Shown one piece after another: positions 3,532 to 27,509 of a DNA stretch of 32,536 bases. The notes under the pieces are model-generated. The model was given only the letters and a program-made list of their open reading frames with translations, did no database searches and was not told the DNA's origin. The position numbers were made by a program, and so were the translations under genes. The stretch is from a phage: assembly GCA_012925625.1 (NCBI GenBank), contig GCA_012925625.1_3625.1. One strand, given 5' to 3'. Position 1 is the first letter of the stretch, and every line of letters begins with the position of its first letter.

Positions 3532-3765
3532 ATGATGGAACAAATTAAACGCGCTGAGGCTATTAATGGCAATGTGATCTATTTTGTCAGCAAAAACGAA
3601 AAAGGCGTACCCTATGCGGCGGTAATAGTACAGCCTGACGGAGATTATTGGTGCACTGTGTACGGCGCTTATTCTTTTGGGCGTCCAGTGCATGATAAAA
3701 TTTTGAAAGTAGCGAACCCTACCGGGAAAAATATTACAGCAGAAAAATTTTTTGAAAATAGTTGA
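3532..3765 (+). CDS. hypothetical protein (77 aa)
   Basis: Start at ATGATG 3532 with RBS AAGAGG; the track ORF starts upstream without an RBS. Confidence 0.55.
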   Translation: MMEQIKRAEAINGNVIYFVSKNEKGVPYAAVIVQPDGDYWCTVYGAYSFGRPVHDKILKVANPTGKNITAEKFFENS

Positions 3766-25128: not shown

Positions 25129-26400
25129 TCAGCAACCACAACTTCCGTAGTGCTTAACCCGTTCTATAACTTCCGCTTGCTTACCTTTATTGTAAGGACG
25201 GGAGTTTGGACTAGACAGGTACCCGGATACACGTCTGATCACACTGATCGTTCCCTCTTCATGGTTTCCACACTCTGGGCATACGAATCCCTTAGCTGTT
25301 GCACTGAACTCACCAGAGAAACCACACTTAAGACATTTATCCACAGGCTGGTTGATACCAAAATACATAATGTGTTTATATCCGAAATCAACAAGAGCTT
25401 CCAAAGCATCTAAGTTGTTTTTCAGATTTGGTGTCTCTACGTATCCGATGTTGCCACCAGAAGAGATCATAGCAAAACCTTCCTCATACTCCCACTTATC
25501 AAAAGGCGAGCTATTGATCCATACTGGCTGATGGAAACTGTTGGTGAGATATTCATGCTCGTGCTTCAACACTTCAGGATATTCACGATCCAGACAGGTT
25601 GCAGCTTTATAGCATAGACTCTCAGAAGGGGTGCCGTACAAGCTAAACGCTAGTCTACTTTCCTTCTTGTATCGCTCACAAGCATCTCTCATGTGCTGAA
25701 GTATTCCAAGAGCTAAAGCCTTGTCACCCTCCCTGCCCAAAATCTGACAGGTTTCATACACACCAATATACCCAATACTGATGGAAGCGTACCCGTCATA
25801 GAAGAGTTTATCAATACTCTCTTCAGGATCCAGGCGAGCAAGAGCGCCTTCACACCACATGATAGGGTTCTGCCCTGCCTTTGTTCCTTTTAGACGGTTA
25901 ACCCTTACAAGGTGAGCCTCGTATGCAAGATCCAGGTATTCGTCAAGAACTGCAAAGAAATCAACACCTTCCGTTTTAGCTTTTGCCGCAATCATTGGCA
26001 GGTTAAGGCTAACAACGCCTAAGTTAAATCTGCCAAGGTATTTCTCCTCTCCTGTTTCCAAGTCATTGTATTTGCTAAGAAAACTCCGGCAACCCATGCT
26101 CGTTACTTTACCATCTGTCGAGCCTGTCACTTTACGATTTAGTGGAACAGAAACAAAGTCAGGATAAATCCGCTCTGCAGAGCATTCCAGAGCTAATCGT
26201 TTCAAATCATAGTTAGGATCTCCAGGGTTCATGTTGACACCCTCTTCTAGGAAGAACAGCACTTTAGGGAACACAGGTGTGATACGTTCTTCACCAAGAC
26301 CCATTTTGTGGACTTTCAAGTAGTTTTTGGTAATCATTCTACCAAATACTGAGGTGTCCAGACCTAAACTTAATGTGATAAAAGGGGTTTGCGGTCCCCA
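25129..26400 (-). CDS. nrdD: anaerobic ribonucleoside-triphosphate reductase, exon 2 (C-terminal part)
   Basis: Glycyl-radical motif RVSGYL, zinc-site CLKCG...CPECG; reading frame stays open upstream of the track ATG to 26400 (WGPQTPFITLSLGLDTS...). Confidence 0.8.
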   Translation of the reverse strand, partial: WGPQTPFITLSLGLDTSVFGRMITKNYLKVHKMGLGEERITPVFPKVLFFLEEGVNMNPGDPNYDLKRLALECSAERIYPDFVSVPLNRKVTGSTDGKVTSMGCRSFLSKYNDLETGEEKYLGRFNLGVVSLNLPMIAAKAKTEGVDFFAVLDEYLDLAYEAHLVRVNRLKGTKAGQNPIMWCEGALARLDPEESIDKLFYDGYASISIGYIGVYETCQILGREGDKALALGILQHMRDACERYKKESRLAFSLYGTPSESLCYKAATCLDREYPEVLKHEHEYLTNSFHQPVWINSSPFDKWEYEEGFAMISSGGNIGYVETPNLKNNLDALEALVDFGYKHIMYFGINQPVDKCLKCGFSGEFSATAKGFVCPECGNHEEGTISVIRRVSGYLSSPNSRPYNKGKQAEVIERVKHYGSCGC

Positions 26401-26648
26401 CCCTTATGTTTCCACAAGGCCAGACTATCTCTTGCCTGAAATCACACCGTGTGATTCTTAATCAGACCTCTGCGTTTCGGAATCTTCCATAATCCCTACA
26501 CCAAAAGGTTAGTCGTTACAACCGCCTCACTCCTTGTGAAGCTAGTCACGGGATTGGCATAGCTTTCGCCTTAGCGTTCCCCGTTAGCCAGCGATCAGCT
26601 GACCCCTCATACTGAGGTTAGCAGAGTTTTAAAACGGCCAGTTTGTTA
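26401..26648 (-). ncRNA. group I self-splicing intron (ORF-less, ~248 nt) interrupting nrdD
   Basis: Minus-strand RNA shows P1 pairing AACGGU with GCCGUU ending in U.G, ACGGGGAAC...AAUCCCGUG (P4/P6), GACUA paired with AAGAGAUAGUCUGG (P7), GAAA-capped P9 hairpin and terminal G; boundaries +/- a few nt. Confidence 0.75.
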
Positions 26649-27509
26649 ACCGTTGACAGAAGTTAACGTATTGATTTGATAGAGCAAAGTCTGCATGCTG
26701 TCAAATACGTCTTTATCTGTCATTTGCATTGCAACAGTCTCAGCATCTGGCAACCAATGTTCCTGGCAAAATTTAAGGTTCTTCTCATAGGTCGCTTCAG
26801 CATACTGTGCCAGATAATGATCAATATGGCTCATAGTCTGACCCCCATATTGAGCACTAGCTACTGCACTAGAGATTTGGCTAAGGATTGTTGTTGCAAC
26901 CCCTATTGACTTCGGCTTACTGACATGGGCGTTACCAATGTTGAATCCGTTTTCCAACATGTCGGGATAATTTACCAAACAACAGTTTGTTAACGGACTG
27001 ATCAAGTAGTCAAGATCATGCACATGGATGAAGCCTTTATTGTGCTCTTCTGAGACACGGTCTGGCAGGATCTGTGTTGATGCAAGATGTTTGCTAAGGA
27101 TTCCTGCAAGCAGGTCACGATGAGTGTGTACATGATTAGTAGGCTTATTTGCGTTTTCTTTTGTAAATTCATCACAAGTTCGATCCAAGAAGCCACTAAT
27201 ATCTGCAAGCAGTTTTCCACCTGCCTCTCTGTTATTATCTCTTGTCTGCCTATATTGGATGTATTCTCTGGCTGCACATTTTAAACCCATATCCATAAGA
27301 GCGTCTTCAACAAGGATATGGATATTTTTTACAGAGATCGTGCACTGATCGGTTGGTAGATTGTTAGCAACAACTTCATTAACCGCACAGGCGATCCGGT
27401 AAGCTTCTTCTTCAGTATGTCCAGACTCAAGTAAGGCGGACTCTGCCGCCTTGATCACCTTAATTCCGTTATAGAACTCTTCTCTACCGTCCCGTTTTAC
27501 AACTTTCAC
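26649..27509 (-). CDS. nrdD: anaerobic ribonucleoside-triphosphate reductase, exon 1 (N-terminal part with ATP-cone)
   Basis: N-terminus MKVVKRDGREEFYNGIKVIKA is ATP-cone-like; frame closes in the intron 3 nt past the proposed 5' splice site. Confidence 0.8.

Follow-up and report, generated by a model that had tools for sequence, protein, structure and literature searches.

Why nrdD, the gene for the anaerobic ribonucleotide reductase (RNR), lies in two reading frames on the minus strand of a 32,536-nucleotide (nt) stretch of phage DNA (GenBank assembly GCA_012925625.1, contig GCA_012925625.1_3625.1; hereafter the window), and what the DNA between the two pieces is, were the questions addressed here. 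The source is an rV5-like myovirus (Vequintavirus), an E. coli phage type. An earlier reading made from the sequence alone (hereafter the sequence-only reading) had proposed that a group I intron without an open reading frame (ORF) splits the gene, and this proposal was upheld in our analysis: with a probability of roughly 0.88, positions 26648..26392 of the minus strand constitute a group I intron of 257 nt that has no ORF and is of the T4 td/sunY (IA2) type. This assignment is supported by the homology of its core to td and sunY, by covariation, by its precise presence or absence in near-identical phages, and by a predicted product that matches an uninterrupted NrdD exactly. By analogy with the T4 introns, we infer that splicing occurs and is autocatalytic.

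The limits of the inserted DNA were delineated by comparison with five intron-less vequintaviruses (rV5, pangalan, LL12, CarlMeissner and Pr121LW). All five empty sites read ...TCTGTCAACGGG|CAAAC... (AACGGG|CAAAC) with no bases between, and the limits of the 257-nt insertion are unambiguous because the flanking bases differ from the end bases of the intron. G26392 is therefore the last inserted base, and removal of the insertion restores the reading frame, as expected of the terminal guanosine of a group I intron. Moreover, a 400-nt synthetic query lacking 26392-26648 matched approximately 90 phage records with a coverage of 80% or more, and intron-less records such as rV5 and LL12 matched it as a single piece with 97-98% identity. 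The rV5 nrdD coding sequence (CDS) measures 2124 nt, that is, 861 + 1263 nt, the sum of the two window exons. Upstream, the exon 1 ORF (27509..26646, 287 amino acids) ends in ...TLTSVNG, as the sequence-only reading had it, with the glycine encoded by GGT and followed directly by a TAA stop.

At the protein level, excision of 26648..26392 yielded a computed NrdD of 707 amino acids that was letter-for-letter identical to QHR73342.1, the uninterrupted NrdD of the intron-less phage pangalan. The identical excision in phage AlexBoehm gave protein QXV75731.1, for which GenBank annotates a CDS joined from two pieces. The predicted ligated exons would read ...GUCAACGGU|CAAACCCCU... (AACGGU|CAAACC), and predicted peptides spanning the junction would be ...TLTSVNGQTPFITL... 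and ...LTSVNGQTPFITLSLGLDTSVFGR. Together, five lines of evidence concur that the 3′ boundary is 26392 and that exon 2 begins at 26391.

The sequence-only reading had instead placed the splice at 26649/26400, cutting at the G right after the P9 hairpin, which would give an intron of about 248 nt (26648..26401) and an NrdD of about 710 residues carrying an extra Trp-Gly-Pro (WGP). Although the alignment to the Rfam group I model RF00028 does end at 26402, directly past P9, and although G26401 would retain the reading frame, this cut falls nine bases too early, and we give it hardly any credence. The nine nucleotides are absent from the intron-less alleles, and G26401 directly abuts the P9 stem. 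In alignments to NrdD homologues with solved structures, T4 NrdD (1h78) reads SSNG---QTPF and bacterial NrdD (9d3x) reads TSNG---QTPF; these alignments supported the joining of the exons and refuted the earlier 3′ junction, since the three-residue gap falls exactly at WGP, which is intron sequence. Likewise, the WGP-containing version had no exact match among 15 billion proteins, whereas the version without it is exactly the two GenBank proteins above. A 10-nt tail (GUGGGGACCG) leads from P9 to the terminal G, and the fact that RF00028 ends after P9 is probably the reason that the G adjoining the hairpin had been chosen. The description of the intron as near the minimum size was also overstated, as group I ribozymes of about 200-250 nt that contain no ORF are well known.

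Within these limits, the RNA displays the group I core, comprising P4-P6 and the P3-P8/P7 pseudoknot in canonical order, as judged by T4 homology, the minimum free energy (MFE) fold and the pair count described below (Table 1). The MFE of the 257-nt RNA was -89.2 kcal/mol (z = -3.98), none of 200 dinucleotide shuffles folded as well, and the fold recovered P3, P4-P5, P6, P7.1, P7.2, P8 and P9. At the 5′ splice site, exon AACGGU can pair with the intron's GCCGUU as previously proposed, and the last exon 1 base, U26649, faces G in the U.G wobble characteristic of P1. The GACUA...AAGAGAUAGUC pair and the GAAA-capped hairpin were likewise found where the sequence-only reading had located them. Its motifs ACGGGGAAC...CAAUCCCGUG are present too, but its "P4/P6-like" label for ACGGGGAAC.../...AAUCCCGUG was wrong, the two being the strands of P4 around P5. 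P7 is, by analogy, the presumptive guanosine-binding helix, and P7.1/P7.2 are the two peripheral hairpins that typify T4/Twort-type (IA2) introns. The element contains no minus-strand ORF of at least 40 amino acids, in agreement with the earlier claim that it lacks a homing endonuclease of its own.

Pairings around the 3′ splice site can also be proposed, in part by reference to a sister intron of 797/798 nt (the long form) that occupies the same insertion site in FV3, FFH2, MaxBurger, isim, JEP1 and others. A P10 is possible between the UG beside the guide sequence and CA of exon 2 (2 base pairs), with CUG/CAG (3 base pairs) in the long form. A P9.0 could form between the CC preceding the terminal G and GG of J7/9. 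In addition, a hairpin is predicted over the 3′ splice site (window 26383-26398, minus strand; L002 ~3737-3757; L005 ~2300-2320), in which GGGG of the intron tail faces CCCC of exon 2; its counterpart in the long form is GGAG/CUCC, with one compensatory change. This hairpin may help to present the terminal G.

Table 1. Intron elements, nrdD exons and neighboring genes in window coordinates
Feature	Position	Strand	Description and basis
Group I intron	26392..26648	-	257 nt; opens with UAA (in-frame stop), terminal G = 26392; empty-site comparison, protein look-ups, RF00028
P1 3′ strand, internal guide sequence	26633..26638	-	GCCGUU; pairs with exon AACGGU (26649-26654)
P3 5′ strand	26621..26626	-	CUCUGC; pairs with GCAGAG 26468-26473; in MFE fold; covariation
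Hairpin A	26605-26617	-	CCUCA-GUA-UGAGG; between P3 and P4; MFE fold; covariation
Hairpin B	26587-26603	-	GUCAGC-UGAUC-GCUGGC; between P3 and P4; MFE fold; covariation
P4 around P5	26548..26584	-	P4 ACGGGG/UCCCGU, strands as in T4 td; P5 GCUAAGGCGAAAGCUAUGC; RF00028 alignment, MFE fold
P6 hairpin	26524..26542	-	GCUUCAC-AAGGA-GUGAGGC; MFE fold; counterpart in the long form GUUCUUAC/GUUGGAAC
P7 5′ strand	26510..26514	-	GACUA; pairs with UAGUC 26423-26427; motif also in T4 sunY and td
P7.1 and P7.2	26474..26509	-	P7.1 ACCUUUUGGU; P7.2 GUAGGGAUU...GAUUCCGAAAC; GUAGGG...CGAAAC frame as in T4 sunY and td; MFE fold
P3 3′ strand	26468..26473	-	GCAGAG; MFE fold, covariation
P8	26435..26466	-	Long hairpin UCUGA...UCAGG, inner AAUCACA/UGUGAUU; MFE fold; HNH ORF of the sister intron sits here
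J8/7 and P7 3′ strand	26423..26434	-	CAAGAGAUAGUC; one base off AAGAUAUAGUC of T4 sunY and td
P9 hairpin	26402..26419	-	CCUUGUG-GAAA-CAUAAGG; RF00028 alignment, MFE fold
3′ tail	26392..26401	-	GUGGGGACCG; after P9, through terminal G 26392
nrdD exon 1	26649..27509	-	287 codons (861 nt); ATP-cone and N-terminal part of NrdD
nrdD exon 2	25129..26391	-	420 codons + stop (1263 nt); opens CAA ACC CCU = QTP; glycyl-radical domain inside
Local gene order		-	nrdA (771 aa), nrdB (382 aa), glutaredoxin (92 aa), nrdD, nrdG (157 aa)

To classify the intron, we compared it with the T4 nrdD (sunY) and td introns, whose sequences were taken from NC_000866. Like the window intron, sunY interrupts nrdD within the same conserved stretch of NrdD, opens with a UAA stop (UAAC...), lacks P2, has an A-rich linker between P1 and P3 with P3 coming directly after P1, and ends in a P9 hairpin. 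The two also share P7.1/P7.2 with the GUAGGG...CGAAAC frame and a P7 built from GACUA and, in T4, AAGAUAUAGUC, to which AAGAGAUAGUC corresponds in the window; P3 is CUCUGC/GCAGAG in the window, UCUGCC/GGCAGA in sunY and UCUAUC/GAUAGA in td. P5 and P6 are hairpins in the window intron and in the T4 reference alike. The insertion sites, however, are not the same: the T4 site lies 32 nt upstream, at GAGU|AUGAA inside a Tyr codon. Furthermore, sunY is an IA2 intron of 1033 nt with a GIY-YIG ORF (I-TevII), only UAAA, with no hairpins, separates its P3 from P4, and it scored 105 bits against RF00028 compared with 29 for the window intron. The likeness to td extends to identical P4 strands (ACGGGGAAC...CAAUCCCGUG) and to an identical P7.2 (GUAGGG...CGAAAC) and J8/7-P7 (AGAUAUAGUC), whereas td resides in another gene, has P2, lacks hairpins between P3 and P4, carries the I-TevI ORF in P6 and has extra sequence after P9. 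None of the anchor motifs was found in the T4 nrdB intron in a comparative motif search. This element-by-element match to sunY and td places the window intron, by its sequence, in the T4-type (IA2-like) class of group I introns.

Further support for the helices came from compensatory changes. Between the short and long forms, P3 changes from CUCUGC/GCAGAG to CUCUCC/GGAGAG (G-C to C-G), hairpin B changes compensatorily from GUCAGC/GCUGGC to GUCGG/CCGGC, P9 exchanges a U-A for a C-G pair, and P6 has mostly different letters with its pairing kept. When IMG/VR was scanned for the pattern of the P4-P5-P4′ frame, 83 loci were retrieved, about half of which have the 5′ layout of the window intron; among their P3 variants, at constant positions, are ACACCC/GGGUGU, AUAUCU/GGAUAU, AUACCU/GGGUAU, ACAUCU/GGAUGU, CACGGU/GCCGUG and CGAUGU/GCAUCG, and eight distinct covarying P3 sequence pairs were recorded across the relatives. 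In a pair count over five helices (P3, hairpins A and B, P8 and P9) in ten related introns, 99.6% of the hand-extracted cells were paired compared with 64.5% in shuffles, and none of 500 shuffles reached the observed value. Both sides had changed in 22 of the 25 pairs, the covariation score was 0.96 versus 0.25, and pairing collapsed to 35-44% when the partners were slid by 1-3 columns. P7 and P4 are invariant among the compared introns and thus uninformative for covariation. A plain MAFFT alignment of the short and long forms was set aside for these counts, as P7.1-P8 are not homologous between them and the 3′ strand of P3 was misaligned.

The sole unusual trait of the intron is the presence of hairpins A and B (26587-26617, minus strand) between the UAA that follows P3 and P4. 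J3/4 here comprises UAA, the two hairpins (32 nt) and UA, whereas td and sunY have UAA(A) only, and the short J3/4 of 3-4 nt seen in IA2 reference members, which is not a formal criterion of the subgroup, is thus missing. Junction J3/4 contacts P6 in solved ribozymes. At one IMG/VR locus (L019), AAACUCUGCUAA is followed directly by ACGGGG with no hairpins between; the two-hairpin layout, in turn, occurs in the long form, at loci L012, L021, L026, L041, L054, L068, L085 and L010, in about half of the td-like IMG/VR introns and in Bacillus phage S4-2. Hairpin B is GAAA-capped in several of these relatives. The literature we searched yielded no description of such an insertion in phage introns, only a generic mention of P3.1, in a review-type sentence, as one of the optional group I pairings (PMC3873408). 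It is tempting to view hairpins A and B as the mark of a so far undescribed IA2-like subclass, in which a "P3.1/P3.2" module replaces the absent P2 as a peripheral stabilizer, and which occurs widely among uncultivated phages, with Gram-negative as well as Gram-positive hosts, and is partly invisible at the RF00028 gathering score; we regard this proposal as tentative and, on balance, doubtful. The notion that RF00028 systematically misses the two-hairpin subfamily is weakened by L026, a two-hairpin intron that passes the Rfam threshold with 53 bits. The insertion may be of some interest to specialists in ribozyme structure.

Several observations nevertheless weigh against an active group I intron at this site. 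A search of the whole window against Rfam returned no match at the gathering threshold (50 bits for RF00028); a permissive scan of 26300-26750 (451 nt) did align RF00028 positions 1-253 end to end on 26658..26402 (minus strand; E 1.2e-5), with a score of 29.2 bits that is well below the gathering score. The low score can be traced to insertions and to the placement of P3 on CGCUG.GCU, the 3′ strand of hairpin B, which requires G.A and U.C mismatches. We rejected this placement because CUCUGC/GCAGAG is perfect, covaries and fits the sunY layout. A 32-nt insertion at J3/4 also means that activity cannot be assumed, and no experimental evidence for splicing of the window intron or its sisters was found in the literature searched. 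The nrdD gene is dispensable aerobically, and a dead intron could therefore persist for some time. Moreover, the strands of the pair count were extracted by eye and joined by fixed linkers, a procedure that favors pairing, and most of the close relatives belong to just two lineages.

These points bear on two further explanations. In one, the gene is split without splicing, the NrdD halves being separate polypeptides that assemble, or a decayed intron having inactivated the gene. Split RNR genes that remain functional are on record (PMC3653736), as in Aeromonas phage Aeh1, where nrdA, like nrdD here, lies in two pieces; a stop codon closes exon 1, many GenBank records list two separate CDSs, and a downstream ORF of 402 amino acids (26337..25129) has its own ATG. 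The Aeh1 spacer, however, is a free-standing endonuclease gene (mobE) without a ribozyme, and the two Aeh1 polypeptides assemble, whereas the window spacer is ribozyme-like RNA without an ORF that retains all group I core helices with compensatory changes. Furthermore, the ATG at 26337 lies 18 codons into exon 2, and a protein starting there would miss 18 conserved residues (QTPFITLSLGLDTSVFGR) for which T4 NrdD has aligned counterparts. A dead intron or a pair of polypeptides is quite improbable because the ribozyme core is intact and covarying and the downstream ORF misses these residues; exact excision also restores the very protein that intron-less phages encode, neither exon contains a frameshift or stop in any carrier examined, and an in-frame stop at the intron start occurs in T4 sunY as well.

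Alternatively, splicing may occur but not autonomously, the short form requiring a phage or host protein or ongoing translation owing to its P3-P4 insertion. An insertion at the place taken by a bare UAA(A) in td and sunY, the low RF00028 score, and the translation dependence of T4 intron splicing in vivo, which is the subject of a paper cited within PMC3653736, would be in keeping with this idea. The recurrence of the two-hairpin architecture in many unrelated phage contigs, by contrast, argues for a stable functional design, and one such intron, L026, lies above the Rfam threshold. We thus regard dependence on such factors as unlikely, though less so than a split or inactivated gene, and favor the self-splicing group I intron.

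For this favored reading, a pathway can be proposed on the model of T4. The nrdD pre-mRNA would carry the intron, and a ribosome translating exon 1 would halt at the intron-opening UAA, as in T4 sunY. The RNA would then fold into the P3-P9 and P4-P6 domains of the core, with P7.1/P7.2 and with hairpins A and B as additions. Next, P7 would bind a free guanosine, which would attack after U26649 at the U.G pair of P1; the 3′-OH of exon 1, once free, would attack after the terminal G26392. The exons would thereby be joined as ...AAC GGU|CAA ACC... in an mRNA for the 707-residue NrdD.

In addition to the structure of the intron, we considered its distribution and mobility. The intron query matched 43 phage records and the surrounding nrdD region about 120. 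Among the 43 were 14 full-length matches to the short form (98.6-98.9% identity) and 29 partial ones, of which those inspected were the long form; roughly a third of vequintaviruses have either form. The long form encodes an HNH_3 (Pfam)/I-HmuI-like protein (FV3 gp107; MaxBurger bas54_0179) within P8, its AUG lying just past the P8 5′ strand and its stop abutting J8/7. The P1/internal guide sequence, P4-P5, P7 and P9 frame and the two hairpins are common to both forms, with approximately 87% identity in the shared parts, whereas P7.1, P7.2 and P8 cannot be aligned; for this reason the short form is not a simple ORF-deletion derivative of the long form.

Presence or absence at one exact site, together with an intron more conserved than its flanks, is the pattern of a mobile intron. 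The short intron is 99.2-99.6% identical among the window, AlexBoehm and navn, compared with 92-96% for the 150 nt of exon next to it. Over the final 150 nt of exon 1, the window is 100% identical to MaxBurger, a long-form carrier, and only 92% to the other short-form carriers; across the intron and the beginning of exon 2, its identity to navn is 99.3-99.7%. By these comparisons the nrdD locus is mosaic (window 26392-27509 against L001, L002 and L003), as expected around a homing site; such flanks, together with the patchy occurrence of the intron, point to a hot spot of homing or recombination. The Gly codon at 26649-26651 is GGT in all intron-bearing alleles examined, short and long, and the synonymous GGG in all five empty ones; this split is consistent with a need for U at position -1 and possibly reflects differences in endonuclease target or immunity. 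The ORF-less short form may have spread by vertical inheritance, by flanking recombination, or through mobilization in trans by the HNH enzyme of the long form, the last being conjectural. A site that is empty, ORF-less or HNH-bearing in different phages offers a natural series on the persistence and spread of ORF-less introns.

A second intron site lies approximately 300 nt downstream in exon 2 (window ~26056-26092) and is empty in the window. In navn and JEP1 it holds an intron with an HNH ORF that scored 35 bits against RF00028 (L003 3509-4307), and in an IMG/VR vequintavirus contig (L064 2246-2485) an ORF-less group I intron that scored 70.5 bits.

The intron itself is not new to annotation. 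The BASEL phages AlexBoehm, HeinrichReichert and RudolfGeigy (MZ501048, MZ501073 and MZ501102) carry the same short intron, and the same boundaries are already annotated there; in AlexBoehm, the intron is 99.2% identical over 257 nt, the flanking exon 1 is 92% identical over 150 nt, and the joined CDS reads ...SVNG|QTPF.... The BASEL authors set intron boundaries by comparative genomics (PMC8594841), and their records state no ribozyme class or structure; only the class, the structure and the P3-P4 insertion are added here. We found no description of an rV5-type nrdD intron in the literature searched, and the rV5 paper mentions introns only for the terminase gene. Group I introns in phage RNR genes, nrdD included, are classical (PMC2988022, PMC3653736) and an ordinary feature of phage nucleotide-metabolism genes, and the current understanding of phage group I introns is unchanged by this finding. 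Its practical value lies in the exact boundaries, which permit a correct joined CDS of 707 residues in rV5-like GenBank records that often list nrdD as two or three genes.

Regarding the annotation of the gene, nrdD most likely starts at a GTG that overlaps the glutaredoxin stop (GTGA, window 27506-27509), the same geometry as in the rV5 RefSeq CDS; this start gives 707 residues with the ATP-cone. The BASEL records differ in beginning the CDS at an internal ATG (636 amino acids; L001 2092 versus 2305), with loss of the ATP-cone. In many GenBank relatives, the two exons (window 26646-27509 and 25129-26337) are annotated as separate or hypothetical proteins, and some relatives also list intron-derived ORFs; the 427-residue "large subunit" CDS of FV3 begins within the intron.

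Finally, about 120 phage records, nearly all of them E. coli vequintaviruses, match the 1.1 kb around the intron with 94-98% identity. Eighteen unannotated "Campylobacter phage" records of 135-143 kb (e.g., MG065644, MG065690, MG065646, MG065647, MG065654, MG065655 and MG065666) share 97-99% identity with E. coli vequintaviruses in this region, and they look mislabelled or derived from contaminating coliphages.

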